A DNA stretch of 64,000 nt from Vermamoeba vermiformis (Eukaryota). How positions within the stretch are numbered: position 1 is the first letter of the stretch; the number at the start of each line of letters is the position of its first letter. The position numbers and the translations under genes are program-made. The notes under the pieces are model-generated. The model made no database searches. It was not told the DNA's origin and saw nothing but the letters and a program-made list of their open reading frames with translations. Where the stretch lies: the NCBI GenBank assembly GCA_045837725.1, contig JBEWZL010000232.1, positions 62,001-126,000 on the forward strand, in the 5' to 3' direction. Below, piece by piece: positions 4,735-51,025 of the stretch.

Positions 4735-5115
4735 GCTTGACCTCCTCGAACAAATATTACAAATAATAGGACCCGTTCAAGAATACAATACAAAATAGTG
4801 CTTACAGTCTATTGTGGTTCATGACAATAACTGTTGGATTAAGTAGTTTCCTTTGTTGCTGATTTGTTGCTGCCACCCAACACATATTTCGATAAGCTGG
4901 AAACAACATCATCGTATCAATTCATTAATGACTTTTTGCCAAAACGCCATAGTATCCAACGAAATGTCGTTCGTTTTCCAAGTGTTGATCTGGATGATTG
5001 ATTAGGGCTTAAAAAAGCGAGACCATTTACTATTCTGGAGTTTCGAACCGATTTGCGGGCACTATAATCCATTTACTCGTACCTATACGTCAAATTTACT
5101 GAGTTTAATTTTTGT

Positions 5116-7055
5116 TCAAAGTAGTTGGTCACCAGCATAGTTCTTGATCCATTCTACAAGATCGTTCCTCTCGTGAGAAGACGCCACTTGCAGAACTGCT
5201 TTAGGGTCCCAAGGACACCCATTTTCTACTGCGTAATGAAGGCAGTCGATAGTTAGCGCTGTAGACTCGAAGGCGCAAGTGATGGTATCGGCGGACCAGG
5301 GCGCGCCATTCTCATGAGCGTATTTCAGCACTTCAAGACCCAAACCTTTTTTTAAAATCAGTGTGCAAGTGTTAGGTGTCCAAGGCACGCCTTTCTCGTG
5401 CATGAGTTTCAACATGTCGAACGAATTCGTCGCAATTTCCATTGCTCTGTCGTTAGTAGGGCCTACACAACCAACACTATTATTATCATATATGAATTAA
5501 GCACGTACTTACATCCGTGTTCAAGCGCGTATTCCAAACAATGGATGTGGCCACGATCAGCTGCGTAGACACAAACCAAAGCGTCCCAAGGACACCCGTT
5601 TTCATGGAGATATTTCAGCAGCTCGAGGTTACCACGATTTGCTGCTGATGCACAGGTCGATTCTTTCCACGTACAGCCTAGCCCGTGCAAGTACTTGACA
5701 ATCTCAAGCTCGTGATCGTTGACTGGGCTGATCGTGTTATCTATGATTGACGTTTTGACGAACGGAGCACCGTGCTCGATCAAATACTTTAACATGTCTA
5801 ATCTTCCAGTACGTGCTGCTACTGTCGCAACATCTAATCCTCTAGCTAATAGGCAGGCCGTTAGTTTTCAGCCAAGTACAATGGATCTTGTTGCACGTAC
5901 TAAAATTGGAAAACAATCCTTGTGACGGACGTGATTCGAAAGGACAGCCGTTCTCAACTAAGTACTTGAGTAATTCGAAGTAACCGTGCGTTGCCGCCAC
6001 TTTCATTGCAGCAACATCCCAAGTACCTGGATCCGTTAGACACGTGTCAGAAGTGCTAAAAAGTCACTTACATCCTTTGGCTCGCGCTTCTTTCACCATG
6101 TCGACGTCATTCATGTCTGCAATAGCTTCCATTAAATAGTTGCTCATAGGAGCACCGAGGCTGAGCGCAAAGCGAAGAAAGTCTTTGTGTCCTGCTTTCG
6201 CGGCCGCCTCACAAATAGTGTCGGGTATATTAAATCCTTTGTCAACGTAGTACTGCAACACTTCAATACTACCACCCATAGCTACGTAAGTCATATCTGC
6301 TTGGTCTAGCGGATTGTATTGTTCGATGAATTTAACCATCTCGAGATTTCCAGATCTAGCAGCTGCAGATCCAAGCCCTTGACTAGGCATCGAAGTCTCT
6401 ATGAAGAGAAGGTTAATATAAATCTAATACAACGATTTAAAGACTTACTGGACAAGATAAATTTCAACAGATCGATTTTTCCTGACTTGACCGCTCCCAA
6501 TGCAGTTTCCGAATTAGGCAAGATGTTCTTTTCAAGCATCAAATACTGCACGACGTGTTGCTGACCGCCTTCCGCCGCTTCGTTCAAAACGTCAGTGTCA
6601 AAAACCACATCGTGATCTTCCAAGATCTTCAAACAATCCAAAAATCCTCTTCCAGCTGCCAACTGCCCTTCACCTGACGTTATTGGCGCACCAGTTTCAA
6701 GAATATACTTCAACAAAGATGGGTAGTTCATGCGACAACAATACAGAGAAAGTAAATCCGCTCCATATAAGCAGAAAGCTGCTGTCGACTTGGGAATTCT
6801 CTTCGTTAATTCATAAAATGCCTTTGAAACCACTGCTAGCACGCTTATAATTAATTTGCGTGAAGGAACAATGCTTCGTTTCTGTGGATCGAAGCAAAAA
6901 TTGATAATTGTCGTCCATATCTCAATCGGAAGCTGCAATATAATATTAAACAATTATTATTCGATTGGGACATATTGGAGACAAAAAGTCCAATTTCAGA
7001 AAATCTATTATACCTTGAATAATAACTGGTGTTCGTCTTGAAAAATATTAGACAT
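5116..7055 (-). CDS. F-box-like + ankyrin-repeat protein, tandem copy 1 (GCPW-type repeats)
   Basis: MSNIFQDEHQLLFK|LPIEIWTTIINFC followed by repeats such as AANRGNLELLKYLHENGCPWD. The splice junctions checked keep frame. Confidence 0.85.
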
Positions 7056-7241
7056 TGTCTGTCGTGCTGCTTTGAATGAAACAAGTATACTGGCAGACTT
7101 TTTTGGCGAGCACGGCTTGTTTTGAACTGTCAACTTTTATTATTCCGTTTGATCTTCAACGTCAATCTCGTGAGATTAGCATTATGCCAAAGACGTAAGG
7201 ACTAGACTTCGAAAGCTATGTAAGAGTTTTACTTTGAAAAG

Positions 7242-9333
7242 TTAGTTCGTAACATAGTTTTTGACGATCCACTCGGCGATCTCGCTTTGGCTTGAATATT
7301 CTCGAGCTACAGCGAGAATACTTTGAGGGTCCCAAGGACATCCGTTGTCAATCGCGTACTTGAAGCACTTGAAACAGGTATTAATTGATTTGAGTCCATT
7401 CGCGATCGTTTCGTTAGTCCACGGGGCTCCGTTCTCATGCGCAAACTTCAACATCTCGTAATCTGAATGGCGTATCAGTGCAGTGCAAGTGTTGTTAGTC
7501 CAAGGAATGCCTCGTTCGTACAGGAGTTGAATCGTTTTAAGGGATCCAGACTCCGTTGCTGAGTCCATTGTTCTGACGTCCCAAGGGCCTGTATATGAAG
7601 GTTAAAAGACTAATTACCCTATTAAATCTATTGTGCTCGGCACTTACACGCATTATCGAGTGCGTATTTGAGGCATTGTACGTTGCCATTTCGTGCAGCG
7701 GAGGCGCAAGTGAGCTCGTCCCACGGACACTTGTTCTCGTGCAAGTACTGCAGCAGCTCAAGATGGCCACATCCTGCTGCTTTAGCGCACGTCATTGCAC
7801 TATAGGGACATCCCTTCTGCATCAAGTACTGAGTTACCTCCAGTTGGGCCTTGTTGAAAATACTGATCGAGTTGTCAATAATGTCATTGGGCCACGGGGC
7901 GCCGTGCTCCATCAAGTACTTCAAGCAGTCAATATGCCCGTTTCCCGCTGCGCGTGCAGTAGCATGGACTTTAGAGGCTGCAGGAATGTGTTATTGCTAC
8001 GAACATTGTACGTGTAAAACTTACTGTCATTAAACCCAAAGCCAAAGCCAAAGCCACCTACATTTTGCTCTGTCACAGGGTCCTCGAAAGGACAGCCATT
8101 ATCGACCAGGAACTTCAGTGCTTCGAAATTTCCTACCGTTACTGCTGCAATTATTGCCGAAGCATTCCAAGGACCTAACACAACGAAATATTCAAAAAAC
8201 ATGTTCGTGAAAACTCACTTTCGAGAATTCAAGCCACGATTTACAGCGCGCCAAATTTTGTTATGGCACGTGTAATAATAATTTCTGATTCATGGTGTCA
8301 AAAGTGTCAAAGTGTCACTTACATCCTTTCGCTCGCAGCTCTTTCATGAGCTCTACCTTGTTATTTTCTGCAAGAATTTTCATTAAGGCTGCGCTCGTCG
8401 GAGATCCGTGGTTGACAGCAAACTTGACGTAATCATCGTGACCTTCCGCTGCCGCAACGATACATGCCGCATCATCTTCCAACACGAATCCTTTGTCGAG
8501 AAAATACTGAAGCACTTCAATGCTGCCTGACCCCGCAGAGGCAGCGATATGAGTTTTTTGCAAAGGAGTGAATTGTTCGATGTATTTGACCATTTCTAAA
8601 CTTCCTGAGAGTGCTGCATTATAACCGAGATCCTCATACTCCACCGACGGGACCACTAATATAATAAAATTATAACGCTGAAGTCATTATGGATCTGTCT
8701 ACGTACAGTTTAGCAGGTACTTCACGAACTCGATCTTGCCAGTCTTGACGGCTAAGCCAACCGCACGTGTAGTGGGCTTAATTCCTTTGTCTATTATATA
8801 TTGTACGACCGACAAGTGATTTTTTCTCGCTGCTTCGTTCAAAATAAGTTCGTTAGCAACGCATCCGTGATCCTCCGTTATTTTCAGGCACTCAAGATGT
8901 CCTTCTCGCGCTGCATGAGTGATAGCTGCATCTACCATAATAGCTCCGTTCTTGAGCGCGTATTGTAATAAAGATGCGTAGCCATGTCTGCAACAGTAAA
9001 TTGCGATCGATCCCGCTCTTAGAGGTAGATCCAATTTGCTAGGACTGGTCAACTTCTTCGCCAATTGATAGAACTCTTTTGATACAAGAGCGAGAACGCC
9101 CTTAATTATTTTGAAAATGAAAGGTTGCGGATCAGCACTGAATCTTGCGACAGTGTTCCAAATTTCTAGGGGATGCTAATACATTATTAGCAAAATATAA
9201 CTAATAATATTATTGAAGGCGGAGGCGTAATTTATTATTGTTCTTAATTAATTCTGATCCATAATTTAAAATTATCGAGGTTGCTAAATACCTTTAACGC
9301 ACGTTGCTCGTCATCTTGAAATAGTAAAGACAT
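7242..9333 (-). CDS. F-box-like + ankyrin-repeat protein, tandem copy 2
   Basis: MSLLFQDDEQRALK|HPLEIWNTVARF; AAGCGHLELLQYLHENKCPWD repeats; same exon layout as copy 1. Confidence 0.85.
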
Positions 9334-10814
9334 TATTGTTGACTATAGTGATTATTAGCAGAGATATTTAAATAAACACTGGCGGGAACTTTTTCGACGT
9401 TTCATTTCCCGTCGCGAAATTTTTTGGTTCCATTTGAACGGGACCGGCAATAATATGACCTATCTCCGACTAATTAGTGTTATTATCAATGTTAAAAACT
9501 GAAGTTGTGTTTTTACTATCAATTTCAACGAAGCGCTTCGGGCTAGCTACTTGGGGACGTAAATTAACGCTACGCAACTGGAAGTTGTTAGTGCAAGTGA
9601 AAACACTGTATGCCCTTTCCAGCTCCGCCGTACACCTGCGAGAGTTGCATCCAAGTTGGACCTACTTCGAGGTACCTCAGAGCTGCCCAAGGGGTAGTGC
9701 TAGCTCTGCCGTTCAAGGTAGGAGTTATATCGAGCTGGTATAATATAATTTTGAAGTTTCCACCTCTAAATTTGCTCATGCATGCCACTTCTATTTTTGG
9801 CAACAACAGTTAACTCCGTAATAAAGTAAATATTATTTTTTTTAACGAATAACACTTTCTATTCGGTAATATCTCCGATTTCATGCGATAACTCGCTTGC
9901 AGCCCGTCCTTGCTAATTATCGCTATCACAGTAATATTTCCAAATTTAAATTTTGTTTACAGGAGCAGCTCAGGACCCTTTGTTCGTTTATTGAGAGAAG
10001 AGAGAACGATAAAATTGTATGTACGGACAAATAGTACAATTGTACTCAATAGACGTTCGTCACACTTAGAGATATGAATGAGATTGATATCCGTTTATCT
10101 AACTAATGAATGGATAGTGTATAGTTTATTTGTTCAATCAGTACATTTTACAAATCAAAGTATTCGTAAGGACACCAGATTTATTTTCTACGCAAATGTA
10201 CTGCCTAATTGTCTAATCTTGCAAAGAAAATACAGTGAAGTCGTCGTCGGGATTTATGATTGGAGGAGGAAAACAACCATTGTCGGAGCTTTTAGGTTTA
10301 TCGTCCCACTCTGGCATTGCTAGTTCTTCTTGTGTTGCTGTTCTTATTGGTGAGTTTGTTAAAAAACAAATTGAACGTTGACTTTAAAAGGAAAAAAAAT
10401 CCAGTTAAGGTTCAGAGAAAAAACCACGCGCCAAACCACGTGATAAACTTTGCAGTATTTGTTCGGGCAGGTTTGCTGACGGAGCCACTTTCGCTAATCG
10501 TGTTCCTTTTCAACTAAACTACAAACCCTTAAAAATTTAATGAGCAACGAAAATAAACGTACGCACATTGGGCGCTCAACTTTACTTAACATGCGTTTCA
10601 TTTAGACACAACTCATTCAATCGAACGCAGCTATTTTTATCGGACGGATTTTTACTACTTGTTCATAACGTTGTTCTCGATCCACTCCGCAAGCTTCATA
10701 GACAACGGGCTAGAAAATTTTTAGCATCGGTAAAATTTTATTCAAGAACAACAGTTACTTATGGTTCTCGCATCAAACAATATTTCGTGTTGTATCTACG
10801 CGTTCAACGGTTTA

Positions 10815-12875
10815 TCACTTTTTCAAAGCATTTTTTTCGATCCAATGAATAACCGCCCAATTATAGATTATCTTTGCCAATGTTAAAGTTTCTTGCGGGT
10901 TCCAAGGACATCCGTTTTCAACCGCGTACTCGAGACAGGGTAGTATGCCCTCTGTTGGACCATACGCCTTGAGTCCAGCGATAATGGTGTCTTCGGCCCA
11001 AGGTGCTCCGTTCTCGTGCGCGTACTTCAACATGTCCTCTGTGCCGCGACCTAAAAGCTTCGTGCACGAATCGCTAAGCCACGGGAGGCCTTTCTCGTGC
11101 ACTATTTTCAATACCGCGAGTGAGCCGAAAGACAGTGCCGCGTTCATTGTTTTGTAGTCCACAGGGCCTGTTCATTCGTTAGCGCCCGGGCAAAAAAAAA
11201 ATCACGTGTGTCGTTGTTTCGCAACTTACAATTGTTTGCAAAAGCGTATTGAAGACAATCAATTTTGCAACCCTGTGCAGCAGACTCGCACGTGCTTTCA
11301 TCCCACGGACACTTGTTTTCATGAAGAAACTTCAGTCCTATTAGATTACCACTTTGAGCGGCGTGTGCGGTCGTACGGACATCCCACGCACAACCGTACT
11401 CGCGCAAGTACTTCAAGGTTCCAAATAAATTCGTGTTGGAGTAATGATTGAAGACCAATTTGGTGATGATATCTCTTGGCCAGGGTGCGCCATGTTCCAT
11501 CAGGTACTTCAAGCAGTCAACGTGACCACGGTGCCCGGCACAGAGGGTGGCTTCGTTCGTGGGGCCTAGATAGGGATGTACGTAAGAATCATGCGATCAG
11601 ACAAGTCATTATAGGTTACCATAGTTGTATCCAAATCCGTAACGAAGCCACTTGTTTTGCGCTTGCTCGCCAAAAGGACAGCCGTTGTCGAGCAAGAATT
11701 TGAGTGCGTCAAAACAACCTTTGCTGGCAGCTTCTTTAATCGCGCCCCCATCCCAAGGACCTATCATATGTCGACCGTTAGTCAAACCGATCCTCACTTG
11801 ACACGTGTCATACATCCAATGTGTCAAAGTGTCACTTACATCCTCTCGCTCTCAACTCTTGCATTAACTCCACGTCGTTCATTTTTGCGACAGTTTGCAT
11901 CAATTCTTCGCTCATTGGAGCGCCGTGGTCGATGGCAAGCTTGACGTAGTTGAAGTGACCTTTCGTTGCGGCTGTCAAACAGACCAAATGATCGGTCAAT
12001 CCAAACCCTTTGTTGATATAGTACCGCAAGATCTCGACATTTCCGCATAGCGCTGAGCCAATGATGTTCTTTTGTTCCAAAGGAGTGTATTGCTCGATGT
12101 ACTTGACCATCTCAAGACTTCCTGACTTTGTCGCATCAAGCCCAATGTCGCTATAAGCTCGAAGATAAACGTCTAAAATATTAAGTTAGTTTGTCATTAT
12201 AATGGAAAGTTACAGCAGGCTTACAGTTCTGAAGATATTTGACCAAATCCACTCGTCCTGAACTAATTGCATGCATCATCGTCGTATCGACTGGTATAAT
12301 TCCCTTTCCGATCAAATATTCAACCACGTGCAACTGTCCTCTTTGCGCTGCGTCGTCAATAAGCCCGGGGCACAGTTTACATCTGTGATCCAAGAGCACT
12401 TTCAAGCAATCTAAGTGGCCGTTTTGAGATACAACAGTAGTGGCTTCTGTTGCCAAATACAAGCGGTTTTCAAGAGCGTATTTTAAGAGCGATGTATAAC
12501 CATAGTAACAGAGAAAAGCTGCTAAACCTCGTTGACCATACGGATGCGGCGTTTGTAGGGGCATCTTTTTGACCAGTTTGTTAAATTCCTTTGATAATGT
12601 TGCGAATACTTTGCGAATTGCCGTTATTGAAGCCAATTGAAACTGATCTGGCTCGCGGCAAAAATTAAAGATGATTTCCCAGACTTCCGCCGGTTGCTTA
12701 ATTAAATAAATAAGTAAATATTATTAATGTGTGGCCATAAGTACTGCCATAATTATTACACCGCTTAATTTTTCAAATGAAAATACGTTCTACTGTTCCA
12801 ACAAAATTCTTTAATTAGATGTCATCGGATTACCTTCAATAAGCGTTGCTCCTCGTCTATAAATAATAAGGACAT
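10815..12875 (-). CDS. F-box-like + ankyrin-repeat protein, tandem copy 3
   Basis: MSLLFIDEEQRLLK|QPAEVWEIIFNFC; AAQSGNLIGLKFLHENKCPWD repeats; same exon layout. Confidence 0.85.
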
Positions 12876-13556
12876 GCTTTGTATGATTTAATTAGAGCTA
12901 CTGATTGTGAGACGATTAATAGTGGATTCTTCGTGAGACGATAGCCCACAAACTGCGAGAAGGTCCATGCAAATGCATTGCCGTATCGATAGTTATGGTC
13001 TTGATTGGATGTAGTGTAAGTGTACAAAAAGAATCGACTCAAGTGAGTAGTGGTCGTGGTGTTGTTAGCAAGAAATATTTGTTATTTTTCAGTACCTTCG
13101 TTGGGACCACCAGCGCACATCATCTCTAATAAACTATCAAATATTATCGTCTTAACGACTAATGGAGCTGCATCCGGATAGAGTTTATGGCCGCGATCAG
13201 GATCCTAATCATTCTAAAAAAAAAACATTGGTACGAGCGAAGAATAATTATAATTATAATTATGCACCTTAAATTAGAATTCAGAATCCAACTTGCAAAT
13301 TACCAAGTTTAGGCCGAATTTTATCTGAACTTTTAAAGCAAATTTTCATAATCATAAAAAAATCTACGGATGAAAGTCCCTCCGTGCTATATTCGCGTTA
13401 TTGTCCTTTTCTAGCCACGTACCCAAATTTAATTTTTTTCTTTTTATGGAAACCAAATCTTATTTTTTTTGCCTCGCGAGGATCCATTTCAAACTCCAAA
13501 CCGTTGAATTCAACCACAAATCAAGAACTTATCTCTATCCTTTCTTCAGATCTTAA

Positions 13557-14667
13557 ATGGCGACAAAAGTAACTACGACGAAACTAATGGCTACATCCGC
13601 CTCGACTAAGTATGTTTCGATTACCCTCTAATGGTAGCCTTAAGTGGTTATATAGCTATCGAAATTCGAATTTTCCAATTTATACGCAAGAAGCCACACT
13701 GCGATTTTGACACGCAGGATCAAGTCAGTTATAAAATACTAAAAATAGAGCTTCTAGGTCAACCCGGCCTCCACAAGACAACTACTACTCTTATGCCATG
13801 ATGTTACTCATGAAAAGCCAGCTTGGCAAAAATACGGATGGTGAGATCCAACCGAAGAAATTCTTTCATATAAACGAAAAATTAATGTGCTTATCATTTA
13901 GAGGACTTCATGGGCAAGTTTATTGCGGTACTTAAGATGGCTCCCAAGGATAAGACAAAGATGCCCTCATCTGAAGATACAAACATGAAATTCTCCAAGG
14001 AAACGATCCGCGAGTTTGAAACTCGTTACGCGTAAGCACGTGGAGCTCGAATTAGGCTCTATTACGTTACTACAACTATGATTATTAGTGACATCGTACC
14101 TCTTGGACCCAACACTAATATAACGCTGAGCAACACGATGACACGCCGCATGGCCCTTTTCCTGAAACTTTATTTAAAGGGCGCTAAAAACGTCAAACTG
14201 CCTTCGATCTCTTCATACTGTTGTACGTCTATATGCCCATTAGTAACCAAAAGCGTTTAACAGTATTCTATTTTTAGGTTTCAAGATGCGTGGAGAGCAT
14301 TACGCCGTCGAAAAGACTGGACTTCTCATTTATGTAAGCAAGCCGAATAGATTACAGTTTCGATATAGTCTAGAACTAATTTTATTCTTATCAGATCGAC
14401 AAGTCGATGCTGATTGCCAAGGTAACGCGCGTCATTTCGGTGGATGTGTTGACCTTTACGAGCGATGACCAGCCCGATAACGAAGCTACCTCGCATACGT
14501 TCATGTTCGCCTTAATGGCACCGTTACGCAACCGCAAGTTCGAAGCTGAACAGGTCTATCCGCTCGGCTGGTACGCTCCTATTGTTCGCCCAGTTGAATT
14601 TGAAGAGCATGAAGGCGAATGGTACTCCGCTGGCTACAACATTCCGAGCGACCTTGATCATGAATAA
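13557..14667 (+). CDS. Hypothetical protein, paralog A of a tandem pair (multi-exon)
   Basis: Spliced exons YSYAMMLLMKSQL / FSKETIREFETRYA / DIVPLGPNTNITLSN / RGEHYAVEKTGLLIY / IDKSMLIAKVTRVISVDVLTF...YPLGWYAPIVRPV align with the neighbouring paralog. Start codon tentative. Confidence 0.65.
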
Positions 14668-14972
14668 TGGCATCTTTATCCAAGGCTGTTTTACTTTGTT
14701 TATTGATACAAATTGTACGCATTCTGCATATAAGTCAATTTATATAAAAATATTTCGTTAAGTCCAGAATTGAATTATGACATTCATACCACGCGTTAAG
14801 TAGATTCTTGGATAGCCTCCCAAAGATCTATAAATTAACTAACCCTTATTTAGACTTAGAATTTTGAACCTCGCTTACATTTGGATAAAACAAGCTGCCA
14901 AAAGAGTCGATTTCAATTTCCTTCAACTAACTGAAAGCCACGACAGAGGTTACAAGACTATAGTAAGTTCCG

Positions 14973-16176
14973 ATGTCCTCCAAGATCAAGCGAAGAAATG
15001 CCAAGCAAAAGGGATCTGCATCTGGCAATGCGTAAGTTGCCAAGCTAAAATCTTCTTTTTGTTGACGCTTTTTGAAGTCAGCGACCTGTCGCCGCTCAGT
15101 CCGGGCCGGCTTGGCCAAGCCGTATGTATTACTAATAACCAAAATAAGGACGCTATTGATCTTCAATTTCATAGAGCCAGAACAAGTCCAGCAGAAGTAC
15201 CCAACCGCGATCCATCGTTTCTTCCCAAATATAACCATAGTTCCAAATATAGGGTTTCAGGTCCGCAGGATAATTATTGGTCTTATGCGTTAATGTTGCT
15301 TATGAAGGCTCAGTTGCGCCAGATCATGGATAGTAAGTGGACATCCGTTAGTTTTATTGCTACTAACATTAACACCGTCAGGCGACTTCGTGGGCAAGCT
15401 TCTTCCACTTATTCATATGACGCCAGAAGACCCAAGAAGACGCCTAAGACCTGAAGACGTAGATAGCGCATTCTCCGCCGAAACGATCCGCGATTTTGAA
15501 ACTCGTTACGCGTAAGCACTTGGAGCTCGAATTAGCCTCTATTACGTTACTAGAATTATTACTATTAGTGAAATCGTACCTCTTGGACCCAACAACACTA
15601 ATATAACGCTGAGCAACATGATGACACGCTGCATCGAATTGTTCCTGAAGCTGCACTTGAAAGGCATCAAAAGTGCCAAACCAATGTCGATCTCTGCATT
15701 CAGTGGTACGGCGAGTGACGTGCAATAACTTGATTCTCAATACCGCAGTTACTAATTGGTTTGTCGTTAGCATTTTTGGCACGTGGTGAGCGATACAAGT
15801 GCAACGAGACTGGACTTCTATTTTACGTAAATCGATCTTAGATTCCATTTTCTAATGAGAGCTAGTACTAATATGAATTAATTAGATGGATAAGGAAGTT
15901 ATAGTAGGCAAAATTACCCGCGTCTTGTCCGTGGATGTCTTGACTTTCGAGGACGACTTCCAACAAGAAGAAGATGGCGAGCACCATACGTTCCACTTCA
16001 TGCTTTTGAAACCACTGCGCGACGGCCAGTTTGAAGCTGAAGAGATCTACCCGCTCGGCTGGTACGCGTCCATCATTCGGCCTGTTGACTTCGATGAGAA
16101 TGATGGAGTGTGGTGCACTTACGCGTACGATATTAAATGCGACCTCGACAACGACGTATTGTCAGACAGCGAGTAA
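14973..16176 (+). CDS. Hypothetical protein, paralog B of a tandem pair (multi-exon)
   Basis: YWSYALMLLMKAQL / FSAETIRDFETRYA / EIVPLGPNNTNITLSN / RGERYKCNETGLLFY / MDKEVIVGKITRVLSVDVLTF...YPLGWYASIIRPV, with the same intron positions as paralog A. 5' exons uncertain. Confidence 0.65.
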
Positions 16177-16859
16177 TGTAGTACGCGCGCTAGATCCGCA
16201 AGAGTAACCCTTGCGGAAGGTTTCAGCTTTTGTTAGTAAATATACGTTGCCCGTGCAATTATCACGTTATCGCGCTAGTGATTTATAATTATTAATGCCG
16301 TTAGGAAGCGAAGTAAAATATTTTCAATGAATGGATGGGAATCCGGAGAATTTTAAGAATTGAATTTTGCTTATTTTGAATGCACTTGTGACCTAATAAT
16401 AATAACGTTTGCTTCTATATTATAATTAATAGCACAAAAAACTCAATAAAACGTGGATTCAGAATTTAAATTTAGCAGAGCAGCAAAAAATTCCTTAACT
16501 GGTCAAAATGCAGGGTTTACTTTTGCTGATGATTATATAAACATAAAATAATTAGTGGCGAATATTTGTAGCAATTTTAACAACATTCTAGAAGTAGAGA
16601 ATAAATTGAACTTTTGATCAAGAATACTTCGTGTATTTTAGAGCGCTAAAGTTGTAAACAAAGAATTGTACATAAGGAATATAATGTCATAATGCTCGAG
16701 GCGTTAAATTTGCAATTAGATTCATAAGAAGGTCTTACGGTCAACGAAAGAGCAAGATGTGGTCCAAAGGCTCGATGTGGATGTAGATATGCGGCCTATC
16801 GTAAATGTCTTGAACCACAACTCCGCGAATGCACGATATTCCTAAAAGTAGCTGAATTT

Positions 16860-16869
16860 AGAAGCTTCT
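16860..16869. promoter_or_regulatory. Possible partial heat-shock element upstream of polyubiquitin
   Basis: aGAAgcTTCt about 140 nt before the ATG, plus aTTCtaGAAg at 16585-16594. Each has only two nGAAn units. Confidence 0.3.
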
Positions 16870-16905
16870 TCATTGGCCAGAAATCACGCGCGTTCTCGAG
16901 ATTGA

Positions 16906-17925
<1,020 letters not shown>

Positions 17926-18114
17926 ACGAAGCTGCTTTGTAACGGCTAGCGCACGAATGCGCTAATAAACTGTGTTTTACTCTAATAATTGTCTCTTTTA
18001 TTGCAAGCACAACTAAGTGCTAATCAGGTGGTATATCAAGCACGTTGCGATACTTTTATTGGTGGCGTAAGTACAATTACGGTAAAGTAACTCCATCCAT
18101 GGATGTGGGATCCA

Positions 18115-18677
18115 TTAATTAGTTTTCTTCTTGGTCACAGCTGCGGCCTTATTGTTCACTGTAGCTCGTGCCGATCTATGCAATAGAAGTGCGCGAAGTA
18201 AGAAGCCAAACAGCGCCACTGAGGCCGTGATATCGAGTACTGAAAGCAACACATCTCCGAACAGGAGCGAAGTACCGAAAATTAAGCCAAAGACCTCATC
18301 GAAGTTCTTGGCTGACAATACAGCGGATATGAAAGGGCCAATTTGAGGAATAACCGCGTTAACTACGAACCCTGGCAAATCTGATCGCCACTGTAGTTGC
18401 GCGATTGCAGCCACAGTTCCTCCAGCAACTAAGGTATAATATTAGGCGATTTTGTATCGATTTATTTCAATTTGATAGTGTTGTAGTTCTTACGGATCGT
18501 TGTAACCTTGATCCAGCGGCCAGATGAGGCAGATATAATGGCTAATATGGCCACAAAGGACTTCCATGCTGATAAAATTATGGATTCGGATGCTCCCAAG
18601 ACCACAATAAACGCGACCAGCGTTAGGTGGATCACAAGAGCAAATATTGAGATGAATAGCAGAGATTTTGATAGCAT
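18115..18677 (-). CDS. Small multi-pass membrane protein (2 exons), function unknown
   Basis: Two hydrophobic ORFs join in frame through a GTAAGA...TAG intron (about 18429-18494); about 4-5 hydrophobic segments and a basic C-tail. Confidence 0.6.
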
Positions 18678-18960
18678 CGTTTGACTGCTTGTGCTACGCG
18701 ATTGAATTGAAACGCTTAATCTTGCGAAGATGAACCCAGAAATTTATGTGCTTTCCGAAGATTTTTTGTGGGACTTAAGGTGATTAGAAAGTCAAAAACC
18801 TTCCGTGGAGTCGCTCAAAAGAGGGATTTCAAACACAACAAGGCTCGTTCACTATTTTTGGAAGGAAAAGACACTTGGCGGGGTCGAGAAGGAGATGCGG
18901 GGTACAGCAATAGATAATTTTATTAAAAATAAATAACAGCACAACTATCCGACATCGTTG

Positions 18961-21900
18961 TTAACATTTACATTTCGGATCAGGAATAGCGCCCGGGCCA
19001 GGGTTCTCAGGATCCAGTACAATTGCTTGACCCTTCAGATTGCTATTGATATTCGTACCAGCGTATGTATTGGTATCAACATTAGGTGTTCCGTGGTCGA
19101 GCATAGTCTGGTAGATATCTAATAACAAACAACGTTAGAAAAACAGTTCGGATTTCGCTTATGAAAAATAATTAAGGCTAGAGCGGATCTGAAGTGGATG
19201 GAAATATAGAAATAAATATGTATGAGACAATAGTGTACCTTTTAGTGTCATTTGGAAGGCGCGAGTAACGTTTGTAGAATCCAAAGCGGATGTTTCCAAA
19301 AAACTCATTTCATGGCGCTTAGCAAAGTCAGTAGCCTCCTCAACGGTGACTTGGCGTGCAGTGCTCAAGTCACATTTGTTGCCCAGCAAGACGAGCACGC
19401 AATGAGGGTTCGATGAAAAAGTCTTAATTTCTCGAATCCAGCTGTCCACTCGCCTGTATGAGTTTCTGTTGGTAATGTCGTATACGACGATAGCACCCAT
19501 AGCTCCTCGGTAGTATCTGTATTGAAATTTCCTGTTAGTAACGCTGCACTAAAAAATTCAAGCAAGATCCATAAAACTTACTGTCGTGTAACGGCTTTGT
19601 ATCGCTCTTGACCAGCTAATAGATGCAAAGTATATTAGTATATGTTCATATTGCCGTATTGTAAATATAATTTGGTGCGTCTGAGCGCAATTTTTACATC
19701 GGATCCATGAAGCTAAAATTCTCCAGTACGAAAACTTACCAGTATCCCACAACTGCACTTTAATGACCTTATCTTTAACTTCGTAGTTCTTAATAGCAAA
19801 TTCGATACCAATAGTCGCGGTAGTATCTGATTTGAATTCGTTGCGCATGAATCTAGTGAACAGATTCGTTTTGCCGACTCCAGATTCGCCAATAAGAATT
19901 ACTTTGAAGAGCATGTTGTGAGTAACATCTTCTGAGACCTCTGTTTCGGCCGAGAACTAAAAACAAACTCGAGTTAGGCCACATCCGCATCCGTTGTTAC
20001 AAAACTCAAATTAACTAAGGTTATTTCAATATCAAATTTGATAAATCGTATTAAAATATCATTAATAATAAATACAATAAATTACTTACAAGTTCAGGTA
20101 CTCGTCGAACAAAGTCCAACTTGATGCGGACGCAAGGCGACAAACCAGAAGGTCGTTTCTTTGAGCGCTTTTCGACCTTGTACCACTGATCGACAGTAGC
20201 ACCGTCATTGACATTAGACAATGGCACTGCTGCTTTGCCCAAGAACTTGGGTCCTTTTTTCAGATTCGCGTAAACTCCGACAAATAGCCGCGAAGCGTGC
20301 AAATCGTTTGTCTCACTATAATTACGATATGTTAGTGTAATGAATATAAAGCATATGATAGCACTATGCTTACAATTCGTAAGACTCTTCCCACTTTGGA
20401 TTAGTTGACTTCTTGTAAGTACCGCTCGTCTTTTGTTCTTTTTCAAAAATGCATTTGCAGAAGAAATCTCCTTCTTTGGCCATCAGTTCTTTAGCCTCGA
20501 CGACTAATAAAAAAAGTAAGGTTAAATCATCGTTTGCAAGCAAAGTTCAAGTTCGATCCGGGTTAAACTTACTGTCGACCTTTAACTTGCCCTTGATCGG
20601 TCGCTTAGATGCTTTCTATAATATTATAGTGGTTAGTATGATACATTATAATTGTATTAAGTTAGGATTCATTTTTAATGAACAACTGATCCGATCGGAT
20701 CACGTGATCTTGAACACAAAATTTCATTCACTAGTTATTATATCGTTATGATAAGCATAGAATACGTACCGGCTTGGGACCCATATCATCTTCGCGCATG
20801 CTTTGCTCGTCATCGGGGTCATCATCGTCGTCGTCATCATTGTTGTTATGACTGCCCGATCTGTCTCGTCCAGATCGACCACGTGCAGAGCCAGGACGAT
20901 AACCATCGGCGTATTGGAACGTGACCTTGACTTGAATATCGCCTGTAATGTCGTTGCTGGCTTTCTTCTTTTGCAAAGGTAGCCACTTGAAGAACTCACG
21001 TTCACCTGCAATATCTGACAGGGGAATAGCAACAATACCCTAGTCATCGCGGATGGATTAGTTTAAATGGTATTATAATATGCATAACGATCGTAGTAAA
21101 GGGAGTGATGTCGTACCAGAAATTCATTGCCTTTCTTCGTTCGATCCAAAATCGTGATGCGAAGTTTGGCGTTTTCACTGTACACCTTACTGTTATTGAA
21201 AATACATTAGTAATTGAACACTATAGATCGTTATACTGGTGTGACTTACAAGTCGAAAGGCTCGTTCCATTCAGGATTGACATTCTCTTTGATGACGTTG
21301 GTTTCAAACTGTTGGCCTTGCAGTTGCAGTTCACAGAACGGGTCCGCTTGTCGTGATTTGTGCAGTGTGGTCAAGTTGCGTGCTTGGAGGACTGAGAATA
21401 AGGGTTAGATTTCAGCGTTCATGAACGGCGTTAATCTGACGTACCATCCACGTGCATGTCGCCGATAGGGTCCTTGCTGGCGTATTCTTCGGGGTCATCG
21501 TCTGACTCGTCAATGGGCTCGGCATAAGGCTCAAACTTCAAGCGCAAAAGAACCTTGCCGCAAGTCTCGCCCTTGTCCTTCTTAGGGAAGAGATCGTACC
21601 ACTTCTTGACTTCCTTATTTGGTTCTAAATCATCGTTCTCGACCTTAGCCCTCGCCAAGAGGTTGTCTGACTTCTCTTTGTCCTTGTAGATTTCAACTTT
21701 GAATGTTGATTTCAAGTCTTTCACAGTACTATTGCGAACATTAGTAATGTACCAATCCTAAGAGTTATATATGAAGTACTTACAATACAAAGTTGTCCTT
21801 GAAGCGAGGAATCTTCGAGGCATTAACCGGGTCCGTGACAATGTTTTGTTTCTCAAAGTTGCACACTGCAACCATCTGCTTGGCATCGGCGAGGTCGAAT

Positions 21901-24097
21901 GTGTTGTCGAACTTGCCTTCAACGCCGTACACGTACAATTTACCAACTGTCACGCTCTTCACGGCGTTCTTGATGACTTTGAATGGCTGCACAGCACCTC
22001 CTTTCCTAAAGATTGCATTGTCGTTAGAATCAAGGCCATGAACGTGCTCGTGTCACGTGACACAATGAAATAAGTCCACTTACTTTTTTCTGCGTCGTCG
22101 ACCACCATCACCGTCTTCACTGTCTTCCATTTCAGTGGCGCTTTCGCTGATGGAATCATCGTCATCGTCATCACCTGAACCACGCATTGAACGACGAGAG
22201 GAACTTCTGCGCTTCAGTCTACGGCCTACAGACACAAGTTAGGAGATAAATAAGTTACGAACATATCATTCGAGCACGTACTGTCACGATCACTGCCGCT
22301 GTCCTCATCGCCACCGTCACGCACACGTGATCGGGACTCGCTCTTGCGCATTCGAGCAGCCTTCAACGGTGCACCAACACTGAATCTGAGACGAATCTCG
22401 GGACTAGCACCCTTCTTCTTGCTCGTCATGGGGTAGTACTTGTCACGTGATTTGCCTTTGATTTCTTTCATCGGCACTGACGCTACTGCCACTTTCTCGT
22501 CTTTGTCGCACAAAGCTACGGTGAACATGCACTCGTCTTCTTTCATCTTGTCGTCGAGTAAGCTACAACACGAACGGTCAGTAGGTGAATTTGAAGGTAC
22601 GATAATGCTGCAGTCAGTACTTACAATTTGTCCTTTGAGTTGAAATTCAAACTTTCTTCTTTGGTCTCAGCTGCATCAGCTTTGAACTTGCCGCTGCCCA
22701 TTTTAATCTTAACATTCGGGTGTTTCAAGCCTGACACGCCTTTCACGTCCAAGACTGAAGCACAATATTCATTAAGCACGTGCATATATAATTTTAGCTA
22801 TCATAACTTACCTTCGAAGTAGAGCGAGTTCTCCATGTCCACCTACGGAAAAATTTTCAGTTAAAAAAGTGTTACTGACCAATCGAAAACTCCATTAAAA
22901 GTGCACGTGTTACTCTCGCAAAAAGTGTAGTGTATAATAGGTCCCTAGTACTATAATACACGGGCATATGCAACGGTGACTTACCTCTTCTGAGCCCTTG
23001 AATGAAGCTCGAATGTGTAACTTGGGATTTCCTTCAGTCTTCTTTGACCGCTTTTCCAATTGAAACCAACCGTCTGTAGTCTTCTTATTTACAATGTCTT
23101 TCACGATAAAGTTGCATTGACCCAAGAACTCGTCTTTTGATCGGTCATAATCGTATACGTGAATTTTGATTTCATCTTCCAAGTTGTCAATATCACTATA
23201 ACGAATTGGTTAGACCGTGAGTATCGCCAATTAATGTAATTAAAGCAAAAATAATGGTCTGAAAGTGTTTGAAAGCGACATAAAATGCGCATAAATAATT
23301 TTGGTTATTTTAGCTACAAATCAATTGTTTTCGCTATTAATGCTATATTATTGTTAAAATATTGCTTGATATTACTATTATGCTTGCATAATATCGTTAG
23401 ATTAGCAAATAATTGAGTCGAAAGTTCGGATAATTTTGTTACTCGTGTTAACAGTGTTTCATAATCGCTAAAATACGTACAAATTAAATGATTCGTTCCA
23501 ACGAGGATTTAAATTCTTTTCAACCACTTTTGTACGGTGTTTTTGATCGCCTAATCGCAATTTAACATAGGGATTTCCTGCGTCTAATGAACAAGGTTAA
23601 AATTGATTATAATCGTATAAAATTAATTATTATAATAATTTAGTGTTTATAGAGTATATTCATGCAAGATTTTGTTAGTTTCTTTGAAAACGAGTATTTG
23701 GAGGTTAATTTGTATTGAAAATTCGAAAAATTGATTGTATTTCAAACGATGCAATTGTAATTTGAGTATCTATATATAATATGGAGTATAATAATGGTAC
23801 TTACTTGCTTTGCAAACCAAGCCGTTTGCTTCAACAACTAAATTGAATAAAAATTAATTTTTTATTGCTCGCGATCTAGTTATTGATAAAAGACTAGCTG
23901 ATTATTGATAAATACATATTATATACGCATAATTTATGGGTTAAATTCGTTAGTAATATCATGCAAAGAATTGCCGAAAGATCGGATTGTCGCGCTCAAA
24001 ATGTATTCAATGAAATTGAGTATCGGCAAGCGACAATATTGTATATATTAATTAATATAATATACGTACTATCTAATTTGATTGTTCCTTGAGCCAT
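18961..24097 (-). CDS. Five-C2-domain + Rab11-like small GTPase fusion protein with C-terminal CxC
   Basis: Continuous in-frame splice path from MAQGTIKLDIVEANGL..NPYVKLRLG..LNPRWNESF through five C2 domains into LFKVILIGESGVGKT, IGIEF, WDTAGQERY, YYRGA, GNKCDL, ETSAL, ending PKCKC*. Confidence 0.85.
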
Positions 24098-25800
24098 TCT
24101 ACTTGCTTTTCCTGATTTCATTATACAGATTAAAAATTGAGAGTTTCAATTATATTAATTAGTTGTTGCATTTCAAGCAATAATGTATCGATTAAAATTA
24201 ACGAGCAATTAAACAGATTACATAGCAGGTAAATAATCGCTCGACATAACGAACAAAAGTCATCGAAATCCAATCCAACTTACCGATCAAATTTCCTTTT
24301 TACAAATAGCCATAAGATACTTAAAATATATATACTGTACAAGTTGTTTCTACTACTATCCTAATTACTACTGCGTTCTATTGTGTACAATTAAAATAAC
24401 CGTTTCACTTTCAAATTTAATTGAAAATCTTTTTTTAATCTCCCGCAACTGAACGAACTTGAAGAGCATAAAGACCTTATTTACACTACCTCAATAATAA
24501 CATATTATAAGTACAAGCACCTTGTACTCAGCCGATCAGCTGCAGCGGTTTAGCGGGATTTGAACAAAACGAAATGGAGCCTACTTGTAGAGCACTGCCT
24601 CAATTATTTACGGCAAATGCACGTTAATAATTACGCAATAATTATTGGCAGATGTATGCAAATGATTTACAGTCCATTGAATTTGGGAGCTTTTTGGCTA
24701 AAGGACGCACGTAAGTTCTTACCAACCTCAATATTAATTAATAATCATAATAATCGCCATGACACTTTAAGTACTGCTAAACAAGTAATAACTTAGCACC
24801 AAGTGGTGATAAAAAAGTATTTATAAGCCTTTTTTTACGCCTACCAACGAATAATCTTCGACGCAAACGTACGCACCGCGTATTAATAATGCATTAAATA
24901 ATAATTTTGCACTTCTTGATTTTTTTTCCTAGTGGATGTTGGACATTGCAAATATTAATCAATTTTCTGCCCCGTGTACGATCGCTCGGATATTCGTACA
25001 AATTGCCCGCAATTGTCTTGAAGAATTCGTTCGGAGCATAGAGCGATACGCATTCTACGTCCTGTAGTATTAATTTGTGTTGTGCTTCGCTATGTGGCAA
25101 CAGACACAAAAAAAATTTATTAACCGGCCATTGTACGCCACGTCTTTCCATTAGATCGTTATAATAGCATCCTAATAATGCGTTTATTTAGTATTATGAA
25201 TTTATTGAATCAGATCTAAACTCCGGACTGTGTATTTGTTCGGGGAGTTGCGTGGTGTCAAATCAATACCACACTATTCGCGTTACATGAACTGTTCATA
25301 TTATATTCTAGCTTGCATTAAACCAACCGAAGCATCACAGAGCTACCGTGCCATATAAAAACGTTGGACCGCAATTCATTATCAGAACCACGTTTCGAAA
25401 CGCGATTTAAGTTCCGAATATTCACGTTATAACACATGTAGATGAACATTAGTTAACAGGATTATCAAATTTTATTTGAATCAAGCAAAATTTTCGCCTT
25501 TTATGGCAATTTAGACGGAACGTTCTTTTCCGTGCCACGCGGTTGGTAAAAGAAACTGAATAGCAATGAACTATGTATGAGATGAAGGGGATTTTATTTT
25601 ACAAGAGGCTATTTTACATTATAAATACATTCGCAAAATTGGTTGGTTTGGTTCGGGTGTTTTAAAAATAGGAGTTCATCCCTTCAATCCAGTAATACAG
25701 AACTATGTCTTGATCTTCGCTTAGGTTTAACTAAATAGGATTACTTATTAGTTCACAATCTTGCACTTTGACTTTACAAATTAGTCGATTTCTGGCGGTT

Positions 25801-32549: not shown

Positions 32550-32622
32550 TGGATGCACAGGGTTTCGATCCCCGTACCTCCCGCATGCAAAGCGGACGTG
32601 CTACCAAGTGCACCATGCACCC
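32550..32622 (-). tRNA. tRNA-Ala(UGC)
   Basis: GGGTGCA...TGCATCCA acceptor stem with the G3.U70 alanine determinant, anticodon arm TCCGC-TTTGCAT-GCGGG, T-loop with A54, and a T6 Pol III terminator downstream. Confidence 0.93.
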
Positions 32623-41955: not shown

Positions 41956-42613
41956 CTTCGGCAGCTATATATTCTTGTTTAGCAATAATAAAATATTACA
42001 ATGTTGTAAGGTGTAAACAATAAGCTCTGGTAATGACAGGGAATTTGAATTAAAAAAATTAAGTCCAGAGGAAAAATTCCAGGTCATTGTTTAGTCACAG
42101 AACCGCGAGATACATGCGAAACAATTTTGGAGATCACGTTGTGCACTATTTTTTTAATGTTTACGTGCTCCAAAAATCACTTTTGTGTGGTCGGTTGGAA
42201 ATCTGATTCGTTTTTCAATTACTCACCGTGACATCGCTGAAGGTGTGACTGCGCACTCTACTCTCGTGTATTATATCATCCATGTCTTATTGTTGCATGC
42301 GCTTTTATGGGGAGTTAAAAATCAAACTGTCATGTCAAGCAGTCAATGAATATGTCAGTGCAGCTCGTCAACAAAACCTAGTAACACCAAAGGAACTTTT
42401 TGGTTAAGAGCATCATACAATTTAACGTCCTTATTGTGCAGGTGAGTATTGACATCAATCAGTGTCGAAGATCGCAGAATCAGACCGTGAAATTTAAATT
42501 TGTATTTTTCATAAAGTTGCCTACATGTTATTACAAATTAATTAATTTAATTCTTGATTTTTGAAATGATATCCGAATTACGTTTATTTACATTTTCAGT
42601 TACGATCAGATAA

Positions 42614-44817
42614 ATGATTAATAGCATGGAAGTCGGTGTTGACAGTAGCACCAATACTCGTTGGAGCAGTTCTCTTAGGGATGCGATTAAGCAGAACGAA
42701 AACTGGGAGGAGTTGCGAGTGCAAAACGTCGGTCAAACAACGCTGGAGGACTTGCAAAATATATTTCAAGCGTTGGAAAAGAACAGAACCTTGAGAGTGC
42801 TCTCATTGAAGGACAAAACTGCTCAGAGCAGCTTCACTGGACAAGCCGAGCACCCTTTATCAAAAACATACGCCGAAAGCCTGGCTACTAATACGGTGCT
42901 AACGCACTTATCACTAGAAAGTAAGTTTTCTAGCCGAAATTCCATTCAAATTTAATGTTGGATCAGATCTGAAGTTAGGAGGAGTGATTCAATCCCTCGC
43001 CATAGCCTTGCGTCACAACAAAACACTGCAAAGTCTAAGGATTATAGGTACTAGTAATTACTCGAATTCGTTATCGGTTCATAACGTGCTTCAATGCTAG
43101 ACAATTCGTTAACGTCAGAAGACTTAAATAATTTGCGCGAATGCCTTGTGTTTAATAGGACTCTTGCCCATCTCGAGTTGCCAGGTAGGATGCTGTACAA
43201 TACGTGCTCGTTATTAAAATTCGATGAAAGATTATCTCGAAAAGTTCGAAAGTTACGCCTCGGTCATGGCAATCATCGCAGACAACCAGGCAGATAAGGA
43301 TAATAATGCTATGCTCAAAAGACGCGGGCATGGCGAAGAGAATTCAATCAATTCCGTAGCATTGAAAAAGGAATTGGAAGAAATGGCCAAGGAATTAGCA
43401 CGCACGCAAAAAAGCAAGGCAGAATTAATGATAAACAATGAGTTTCTCGAGCAAGTGATCGCTAATAATAGCGAAGCGACAGCAAGGCTAGAACGAGAGA
43501 ATCAAGAGTTGAAGCAGGCCGTGAACGATATAACGGTAGAAGAGTCTGTTAATACTAGCCGAATTGGTCAATTGACACAGGAAATCGTTCACCTAAGACG
43601 AGAGAATAAGATGCAACGAGATCAAATCACTTTGTTGGAACAAAATAGCTTGTTAACAACCAAACAGCTGCAACGAGAAATAAAACTAATCAAGGAAGAG
43701 AACGCAAAGTTGAAGAAGATGCTTGAAGCAGGGGAAAAGAGTGAGCATTCGAGCGATAACAACGAACTGAATGTCGACATCCCATTTGATGAACTGACGA
43801 TTGGAGAGAGCATTGGTGCAGGGGGCTATGGCGAGGTGTTCAAAGCACAGTGGCACGATCAAAACGTTGCTGTCAAGGGCATCAAAATCGAAGACATTGA
43901 GACTGGAAAGATCGACAGCTTGATTCATGAGGCGCGCACTGTGATGTAAGTCCAGTTTCGTGACACCAAATGACACGAGCGAATGACATTTTGACACTTT
44001 ATTTTGACATTTTGGGTCGATAGGCGACTTCATCACAAGCACGTGGTGCTGTCGATGGGCACGACAATGAAACCGGACACCAGCAAGATCATGCTCGTGA
44101 TGGAGTACATGAAGCATGGGTCACTCGAAGACCTACTTTTCAAACACCGTGTCAAGTTACAACGCCATCAAGTGACAGTACTTGCACTCGACATTGCTAA
44201 GGGCTTGAACTACTTGCACTGTCTCACTCCAAAGATCATTCATCGCGACCTCAAATGCGCAAACATCCTCGTAAGTTATCGATTGACACGTGTCACAAAT
44301 TTGATTTCTCTAATCAATTTTGTTCACTAACGCACTACTCTGCCACAGTTGTATCACAACAGATCACGAGCGAAGATTAGTGACTTAGGCACCGCTCGAT
44401 TTTTGAACAAGAATTCTTTGGCCAAGACTTGTCAGGGAGGCACGATCGGTTACTTTGCACCAGAGATTCTCGAAGAAGAAGAATACGACGAGAAAGCTGA
44501 CGTTTATTCGTAAGTGAACAATATTACGCATTAATACAATAGTGCACGTGTCGCTCATCTAATTTTTTAGATTCGGGATCGTGTTGCTTGTTTTAGCCAC
44601 GAGCAGCAACAACTTGCCCACGACTAGAACACCAGCCAAGCTTCGCAGCAGAATCAACGAGCTACTTGATGCATCAGCGACAATGGCCGATGAGGAACAG
44701 TTCAGAGAGCTCGTGCACGATTGCTGTCAAGTAAATCCTAAAGAGCGACCATCGATGAAGCAGTGCATTGATGTGCTAAAGAGTTTGCGTAAAAAACATG
44801 CGAACAACAATAACTAA
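42614..44817 (+). CDS. LRR - coiled coil - TKL protein kinase, array copy K1
   Basis: RI/NLRC3-type repeats (ALEKNRTLRVLSL, LATNTVLTHLSL), coiled coil, IGAGGYGEVF, VAVK, HRDLKCANIL, DLG in place of DFG, APE. Confidence 0.85.
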
Positions 44818-45155
44818 ATCGGCAACAGTTGTTTAAAAGTGAGTGAGAATTTTTTTGTGGATGCGTGTATCATTTTCAATTAGCACGTAAATCCGAATTG
44901 TGACCTCATTTTTCCAACGCTAACTTACCTTCATCAGGGTTGCATGATCGAGTCCAGAGGTGTATGTCGAAACTATTAAAAGATTGAATAAGCAGTAGGA
45001 ACAATACCCAAATACTTGAAACAGACAAACGTCAAACCTGACATGAAACGTATTTCGCCGACAAAAGTGCCTTTTTCATTTGTTTTATGGCCACTGCAAT
45101 TACACAAAGGAGAAAGTTAACTTAATTACTGGTCTCATCTCAAAGCCATTCACGG

Positions 45156-51001: not shown

Positions 51002-51025
51002 GTGGTGCTCAGTTTGAATATGCTC

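Follow-up and report, generated by a model that had tools for sequence, protein, structure and literature searches.

A Vermamoeba gene that joins five C2 domains to a Rab11-like GTPase, and a family of C2-Rab proteins in Tubulinea

The DNA analysed here is a stretch of 64,000 nucleotides from Vermamoeba vermiformis (NCBI GenBank assembly GCA_045837725.1, contig JBEWZL010000232.1, positions 62,001 to 126,000 of the forward strand), referred to below as the window and numbered from its first letter. Its minus strand carries, at 24097..18961, a gene of 20 exons whose 3036 nt form a single open frame with a 1011-aa product. This protein, of ~115 kDa, consists of C2-1, C2-2, a linker, C2-3, C2-4, a second linker, C2-5, a 19-residue connector, a Rab11-like GTPase domain and a tail that ends in CKC. 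Rab GTPases are almost always small single-domain switches with separate effectors. The C2-Rab architecture is not unique to this gene, as a family of C2(n)-Rab proteins is found in several Tubulinea. We regard the gene and protein architecture, one gene encoding five C2 domains and a Rab, as practically certain. The explanation that we favour for the whole, namely this architecture together with a prenyl-anchored, GTP-gated Rab that would carry its own membrane-binding or tethering array, is put forward with fair confidence.

In the exon model, each consensus donor (GTAAGT or GTACGT) was followed by the first frame-compatible acceptor with a pyrimidine or CTAAC context. The coding introns are 53-285 nt long, with consensus donors and CTAAC-type branch sites. 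An earlier note, made from the letters of the window, had placed the ATG at 24097 and had joined the C2 and Rab parts across one phase-0 intron, and all of its coordinates hold: the last C2 exon ends in ..RRVPEL at 20090 without a preceding stop, a GTAAGT donor begins at 20089, a branch-like CCTAAC and a TAG acceptor ending at 19957 follow, and the first Rab exon runs from 19956 in phase 0, reading FSAETEVSEDVTHNMLFKVILIGESGVGKT in frame, as that note had it. The signatures it named (IGIEF, the intron-split WDT/AGQERY, YYRGA, and CKC with TAA at 18972-18961) were all found as well. The genomic contigs L002 and L003 of relatives have the same arrangement, with the GTAAGT donor, CTAAC and AG acceptor kept; intron 16 is 53% identical to theirs with 13 gap columns, and the exons flanking it show 85-87% DNA identity and 92-96% protein identity. 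No second copy of the C2-Rab gene lies within the 64-kb window, and Rfam and tRNA scans gave no match inside the gene or its long 5' introns.

RNA was compared with the gene in 4 of 23 runs, of which X1 and X3 are spliced contigs and X21 and X23 raw RNA-seq. The predicted splice across 20090/19956 was present in all four: in X1 and X3 by a single contig each (shorter side 217 nt), in X21 by 10 raw reads with 8 start positions and in X23 by 10 raw reads with 9 start positions (shorter side 64-70 nt). The X1 contig (2893 nt) and the X3 contig (2664 nt) each span Rab 3' exons, the junction and C2 exons. The joints listed include those of 15 of the 19 coding introns (numbers 5-19), all GT..AG and exactly at the model boundaries; for introns 1-2, 23583 and 24070 are connected in two X23 reads by 33 letters corresponding to exon 2 of a relative. 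The reads of X21 and X23 come from a relative (138/190 and 111/136 reads, respectively, are 90-95% alike). One X1 contig and four X23 reads have loose ends at 24112 that continue with sequence just above 24284, in support of an intron in the 5' untranslated region (UTR; Table 1). The non-coding exon upstream of it ends at 24284 and carries a short upstream open reading frame (ATG..TGA). A relative's open reading frame (ORF), P0128, starts 8 codons earlier, with MKSGKGSRM.., which fits a transcript that keeps the 5'UTR intron.

Unbroken ORFs lead to the same architecture. A search with one C2 exon gave a single cluster (1 match among 83 candidates), which at 90% has 24 members, 15 of them listed. 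P0122 and P0127 (1013 aa) are its full-length members, on contigs of ~3.2-3.4 kb; P0122 is collinear with the model from end to end, with 969/1014 aligned columns identical (95.6%). Among the listed members, seven ORFs read across the junction (P0001, P0122, P0127, P0128, P0130, P0131 and P0134) versus one that does not. The gene model, the RNA and P0122 thus bear out the claim of one gene and one mRNA encoding a (C2)5-Rab fusion with a CXC prenylation motif. Prokaryote-style gene callers cut the gene into exon-sized 'hypothetical proteins' (P0121, P0123 and P0124), a practical warning for amoebozoan gene prediction.

All of the G1-G5 motifs are present in the window protein, and Pfam Ras matches P0122 at 2.2e-58. 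IGIEF, KVQLWDTAGQE, RYKAVT, YYRGA and VVYDIT, candidate RabF motifs around the switch regions, align with their counterparts in Rab11A. The chain ends in CKC followed by a stop, from which prenylation is predicted, and the CXC end is kept in P0122, P0135, P0136, P0005, P0433 and P0023. In the connector, all 16 family members of alignment A3 have a Phe ~20 residues N-terminal of the P-loop strand.

In a comparison with the PDB, 32 of the first 33 rows were Rab11, Rab25, RABA1a or Ypt31/32 (171-191 bits), followed by Ypt1 (165 bits), Rab14 (164 bits) and Rab4B (163 bits), so that the Rab11-type rows stand ~6-25 bits above Ypt1, Rab14 and Rab4. The Rab part is ~50-54% identical to Rab11-containing database proteins. 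A tree was built from 37 Rab domains, comprising 8 fusions, 9 named Rab11-type proteins, Rab4, Rab13, RASEF/CRACR2A, Kelch-Rab and unnamed rows; P0122 was excluded as a near-duplicate of the window, and the set was without Rab1, Rab2 and Rab14 references. The 8 C2-Rab domains and two unnamed environmental rows were separated from all other rows by one branch (83/62; 98% of 200 bootstrap trees), and the 9 named Rab11s formed an adjoining group (87/90) that held none of the 8 C2-Rab sequences. The placement outside the named Rab11 clade therefore makes the domain Rab11-like rather than Rab11 proper. The assignment in the earlier note thus stands in so far as Rab11 is the nearest known family in the PDB ranking, and does not extend to membership of the sampled Rab11 clade; with moderate confidence, we place the domain as Rab11-like, in a probable sister group beside the named Rab11s.

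The C2 domains differ in how readily they are recognized. With a hidden Markov model (HMM) of the first C2 domain of the family, the window protein shows five repeats (Table 1). Exon 7, from C2-2, had no Pfam match when scanned by itself; for C2-2 and C2-3, profiles of the orthologues were compared by hhalign with a profile of canonical Flabellula C2 domains. The best C2 stretch of C2-1 in P0122 is 4-101 by Pfam. Of the five C2 domains claimed at first reading, all are found by the family HMM, with C2-2 and C2-3 supported by the profile-profile comparison, although Pfam finds only 4 stretches in P0122 (5 in the collinear orthologue P0135). The acidic and Arg-Ser linkers described between some of the domains are evident in the translation and its composition, being 95 and 51 residues long, Arg/Ser-rich and poly-acidic. 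A phase-2 intron after the beta-4 'F-x' position lies in the same alignment column in 5/5 C2 repeats (two columns off in C2-2), and a phase-1 intron where the first strand begins lies in the same column in 4/5. These shared positions suggest that an exon set was duplicated as the array expanded. All domains but C2-4 are basic (pI 9.1, 9.2, 8.7, 5.7 and 9.5 for C2-1 to C2-5).

The family occurs in several Tubulinea, as unannotated public ORFs. In a search with the Rab part, restricted to long proteins, 120 of 185 matches were listed, and 13 of these 120 had PF00168 and PF00071 together; besides P0122 and P0135, the Pfam C2 counts alongside Ras were 4 in P0005, 6 in P0149 and 2 in P0199. P0135 (1079 aa) is collinear with the model (residues 1-1011 versus 8-1079, 38% identity), and collinear or same-order relatives are found at 25-41% identity. 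The named holders are Flabellula, Arcella and Pyxidicula, which together with Vermamoeba all belong to Tubulinea: Flabellula baltica has 6xC2-Rab and 2xC2-Rab forms, Arcella intermedia a PH-C2x2-Rab form, and Pyxidicula operculata PH-C2x2-Rab and C2x2-Rab forms. The environmental ORFs P0032-P0037, on contigs of 5.6-38.6 kb that we infer to be genomic, run from C2 domains into the Rab P-loop without interruption. The C-termini are CXC in the Vermamoeba-like and environmental proteins and in one Pyxidicula form, and CxCG in Flabellula. Scanning metagenomes with P0130 led to just 4 loci, from close relatives at 78-96% protein identity, with no distant family member among them; of these loci, L001 and L004 do not cover the junction. 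Such proteins lie unannotated in public collections, named for example 'small GTP-binding protein'.

Several other candidates for the same architecture were rejected. The Adineta protein P0027 has Ras at 12-172 and C2 at 323-422, the reverse order, and is probably a merged gene model; P0164, P0193, P0165 and P0222 are multi-Ras models without C2, and P0151, P0159 and P0161 are purely multi-C2 proteins. The search also returned environmental Kelch-Rab proteins (P0041, P0042, P0045, P0060, P0073, P0104 and P0109; 516-642 aa) with Kelch-repeat Pfam families and a C-terminal Rab, another non-standard Rab design; in the tree, P0041 and P0060 belong to neither the Rab11 nor the C2-Rab group.

The mechanism that we propose draws on the Rab cycle of guanine nucleotide exchange factor (GEF) and GTPase-activating protein (GAP), on the double geranylgeranylation of CXC ends and on extraction by GDP-dissociation inhibitor (GDI), and its multi-C2 models are the extended synaptotagmins (E-Syts), the ferlins and the C2 domains of class I Rab11-FIPs. 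The CKC end would be doubly geranylgeranylated. In the GTP-bound state the Rab would be inserted in the membrane, and in the GDP-bound state it could be extracted by GDI. The five C2 domains, most of them basic and carried on long, flexible linkers rich in charge, would bind acidic phospholipids of the same or of an opposing membrane. A prenyl-anchored Rab joined to a C2 array would thus bring along a membrane-binding or tethering module akin to an effector, and would resemble a ferlin or an extended synaptotagmin in topology, with the fixed anchor swapped for a reversible, GTP-gated prenyl anchor. By analogy with these proteins, a tether or membrane-avidity mechanism is a serious possibility, which we advance tentatively; the contractile vacuole or the recycling endosome, named as examples in the earlier note, would be candidate sites.

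Some observations weigh against this explanation. Two PH-domain forms, P0013 of Arcella and P0020 of Pyxidicula, have no C-terminal Cys; the prenyl-anchor logic fails for these members of the family, and from their sequences these arcellinid proteins presumably cannot be prenylated in the usual way. The support for the C2-Rab clade is moderate and the outgroup sampling thin. One ORF, P0132 (214 aa, on a 974-nt contig), starts with MLFKVILIG and may point to a Rab-only product. In X21, the Rab and C2-5 exons have a greater read depth than the exons 5' of them; as the reads of X21 and X23 are mostly just 90-95% alike, their depth is a poor guide to isoforms and was not used as evidence.

The fusion could also be real with an array that acts in cis, either giving avidity or lipid specificity on the Rab's own membrane or folding back to regulate the Rab. 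The evidence for the architecture serves this alternative equally. Four basic C2 domains of five and a 19-residue connector that holds C2-5 near the Rab domain would suit it, and the arcellinid relatives, in which an N-terminal PH domain replaces the prenyl end, suggest that membrane recruitment is the conserved role. However, linkers of 95 and 51 residues together with five domains exceed the reach needed for avidity, a point of argument only, and we consider an array confined to cis rather unlikely but a serious rival.

Both a full-length fusion and a minor Rab-only protein might be made, the latter through retention of intron 16 or an internal start. P0132 would be such a product, and assemblies that retain an intron are frequent in this cluster: P0125, P0126, P0129 and P0133 retain introns 12, 13, 6 and 10, respectively. 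However, the support for a second product is a single short contig, and a Rab starting from MLFKV would be without the usual N-terminal segment before beta-1, so we think it quite unlikely that two products are made. The relative's assembled transcripts often keep single introns of the C2-Rab gene, resulting in shortened ORFs.

The earlier note had further proposed that the array binds Ca2+, and this part of it is not sustained. The ligand register was set by aligning all C2 domains with the canonical C2 domains of Flabellula P0149, with C2-1 cross-checked against myoferlin, and as ligands we took five acidic positions in loops 1 and 3, those of synaptotagmin (synaptotagmin-1 C2A) and PKC C2 domains. 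Counted over these positions, acidic residues number 3, 2, 1, 3 and 2 out of five from C2-1 to C2-5, and the full five-acid set occurs in 0/5 C2 domains of the window protein. In C2-1, the Asp pair of loop 1 is replaced by Ala and Asn (the myoferlin alignment agrees on the register), and three acidic residues of loop 3 are kept. No EF-hand is among the Pfam families matched by P0122. A Ca2+ switch in this species is not supported by these sequences; with C2 domains that lack complete ligand sets, lipid binding by the array is probably Ca2+-independent here. In Flabellula P0149, at least the first four C2 domains carry the complete set of five ligand Asp residues; its array may be Ca2+-dependent, and the family may therefore have been Ca2+-regulated ancestrally. 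A Ca2+-triggered Rab, in which Ca2+ on the C2 domains would switch membrane binding in the manner of the EF-hand large Rabs, synaptotagmins and ferlins, would accord with the Flabellula sets and with the three acids retained in loop 3 of C2-1, but the incomplete sets in all five window domains, the lost Asp pair and the lack of a Pfam EF-hand speak against it, and we judge it very unlikely.

Finally, the locus could hold two neighbouring genes, a multi-C2 gene and a small Rab gene starting at M798 (MLFKVILIG), with the joined RNA an occasional read-through or chimera. An ATG does lie 14 codons into the first Rab exon, the C2 frame stops 16 codons on when intron 16 is retained, and P0132 begins exactly at the Met equivalent to M798; because the acceptor TAG is in frame, however, P0132 is most simply a case of intron 16 retention, alongside the four ORFs that plainly retain other introns. 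The reading as two genes is highly improbable and already largely refuted: the last C2 exon stays open up to its consensus donor, the joint occurs in all four runs with no pile-up of read starts or ends reported along the gene, seven of the listed cluster ORFs cross the junction versus one that does not, and the junction peptide is conserved to relatives at 25-41% identity and lies within the unbroken ORFs P0032-P0037.

Beyond this gene, we offer with some doubt a broader proposal, in which Tubulinean Rab11-derived GTPases, permanently fused to a multi-C2 array, would be reversible, GTP-gated tethers comparable to ferlins and E-Syts and also a 'Rosetta stone' for the pairing of Rab11 with C2 effectors; they would have been Ca2+-regulated ancestrally, before the Vermamoeba lineage lost Ca2+ control and Arcellinida exchanged the prenyl anchor for a PH domain. 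Animals build the Rab11 and C2-effector partnership from two proteins, Rab11 and the class I FIPs, and to our knowledge amoebae are without the animal FIP effectors. A conserved, expressed five-C2 Rab would be a new design, with a lipid-binding 'effector' and a switch in a single chain, and would offer a natural system for the coupling of Rab nucleotide state to membrane tethering, for the wiring of a Rab11-type pathway in amoebae, and for the gain or loss of Ca2+ control of C2 arrays between related lineages.

That no described family has this architecture, as had been suggested, agrees with the literature searched. No description of a C2-Rab fusion was found in literature searches, though surveys of Rab evolution may already list such an architecture. 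The term 'C2 domain' occurs 0 times in a 2021 review of large Rabs (PMC8303950) and 0 times in a 2025 paper listing large Rabs (PMC12522834), passages of which name as non-standard Rabs only the EF-hand/coiled-coil Rab44-46, the SOCS-box Rab40 and the EK-rich RabD2 of Entamoeba. The features of the gene and of the rest of the window are collected in Table 1.

Table 1. Features of the C2-Rab gene and other features of the window, in window positions
Feature	Position	Strand	Details
5'UTR intron	24112..24283	minus	172 nt, GT..AG, consensus donor at 24283
Start codon (24097) and C2-1, residues 1-123, exons 1-4	22991..24097	minus	Pfam C2: exon 3, 2.1e-10; exon 4, 1.8e-7
C2-2, residues 132-243, degenerate	22370..22824	minus	family HMM 19.2 bits; hhalign 97.4%, P 1.2e-11
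Linker 1, residues 244-338	21951..22369	minus	Arg/Ser-rich, then acidic, then basic (translation, composition)
C2-3, residues 339-462	21524..21950	minus	Pfam C2 weak, exon 10 (E 0.1); family HMM 40.2 bits; hhalign 95.1%, P 3.3e-8
C2-4, residues 480-604	20908..21472	minus	Pfam C2 exon 11, 1.1e-10; family HMM 86.9 bits
Linker 2, residues 605-655	20601..20907	minus	Arg/Gly/Ser, then poly-Asp
C2-5, residues 656-778	20105..20600	minus	Pfam C2 exon 16, 7.4e-4; family HMM 69.2 bits
Intron 16, C2/Rab exon junction	19957..20089	minus	133 nt, phase 0 on both sides; joint 19956/20090 in 4/4 runs
Connector, residues 779-797	19915..20104	minus	19 residues, RVPEL then FSAETEVSEDVTHN; family-wide F-[SAP] motif
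Rab GTPase domain, residues 798-966	19099..19914	minus	Pfam Ras 1.3e-17 and 6e-28 on single exons
G1 GESGVGKT	19890-19867	minus	
Switch I TIGIEF	19815-19798	minus	
G3 WDTAGQE	19749-19605	minus	across intron 17
G4 GNKCD	19383-19369	minus	
G5 ETSAL	19296-19282	minus	
Hypervariable tail, residues 967-1008	18961..19098	minus	includes CKC 18972-18964 and TAA stop 18963-18961
Ankyrin-repeat genes, three tandem paralogues	5100-12720	minus	similar exon-sized ORFs in each
tRNA-Ala (TGC)	32550-32622	minus	just upstream of 2-oxoglutarate dehydrogenase gene; sole Rfam/ARAGORN match in window
Paralogous gene run	42600-55200	plus	leucine-rich-repeat-like, coiled-coil and protein-kinase-like ORFs (..HRDLKCANILV..)
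SH2-domain ORFs	58100-62100	minus	Pfam SH2 6.7e-16

Elsewhere in the window, on the relative's contigs L001 and L004, the 3' flank of the gene (~18915) is joined directly to the homologue of window 4740-2404, and the ~14 kb in between (4741-18914) is therefore present only in the window or was lost in the relative. This interval holds the ankyrin-repeat genes and a four-unit polyubiquitin gene at 16906-17925. One gene of the paralogous run carries a RhoGAP domain at 50180-51001. The SH2-domain ORFs adjoin a 902-residue Ser/Thr/Asn-rich ORF with about a dozen PSQYGVLP repeats, a Tyr-containing motif. G+C is ~41% in the window and reaches 49-52% at 58100-62100. An exon of the 2-oxoglutarate dehydrogenase gene in the window has 95% identity to a protein from a Vermamoeba vermiformis transcript and ~71% to dictyostelid proteins, which places the window close to Vermamoeba and its organism among the amoebozoans.

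Among known systems, the Rab11 family (Rab11A/B, Rab25, plant RABA, yeast Ypt31/32) provides the nearest solved relatives, with all G boxes and a C-terminal double-Cys; unlike these proteins, the window protein bears an 800-residue N-terminal C2 array, and its Rab falls in a sister group with other C2-Rabs. Passages in PMC8303950, PMC7645795 and PMC12522834 describe the large Rabs Rab44, Rab45/RASEF and Rab46/CRACR2A as having EF-hands and coiled coils; such Rabs resemble the window protein in having an N-terminal sensor- or effector-like region and a C-terminal Rab (residues 798-966 of 1011 in the window protein). They differ in that the window protein has five C2 domains in place of any Pfam EF-hand, and the RASEF/CRACR2A-type Rab domains are distant in the tree.

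Class I FIPs and Rab11 are separate polypeptides, the C2 protein being linked to the GTPase through a Rab-binding domain, whereas the window protein has C2 and Rab in one covalent chain, and no FIP Rab-binding domain is among the Pfam matches of P0122. As described in PMC4156484, the class I Rab11-FIPs (RCP, FIP2 and Rip11) have a C2 domain that binds phospholipids and function with Rab11 on recycling membranes. Rabphilin and the synaptotagmin-like proteins also bring together Rab signalling and tandem C2 domains, and a rabphilin C2 structure in the PDB matches C2-1 at 1.4e-7; unlike the window protein, they have no GTPase domain and act as effectors, with a distinct domain for binding Rab3 or Rab27.

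Ferlins, E-Syts and MCTPs share with the window protein serial C2 domains and a membrane anchor at one end. The best PDB matches of C2-1 are myoferlin, dysferlin, Munc13 and E-Syt2, the ferlin scores being sums over many weak C2 matches. Extended synaptotagmins/tricalbins are defined by an SMP lipid-transfer domain and an N-terminal membrane hairpin. Pfam on P0122 lists only C2-type and GTPase-type families, with neither the ferlin-specific domains (FerI, FerA, FerB, DysF) nor SMP among them, and the C-terminus of the window protein is a Rab tail rather than the hydrophobic helix of a ferlin. The anchor of ferlins, E-Syts and MCTPs is transmembrane, whereas that of the window protein is predicted to be a reversible Rab prenyl tail. 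We rate the C2-Rab as at once a large, multidomain Rab and a multi-C2 membrane protein.

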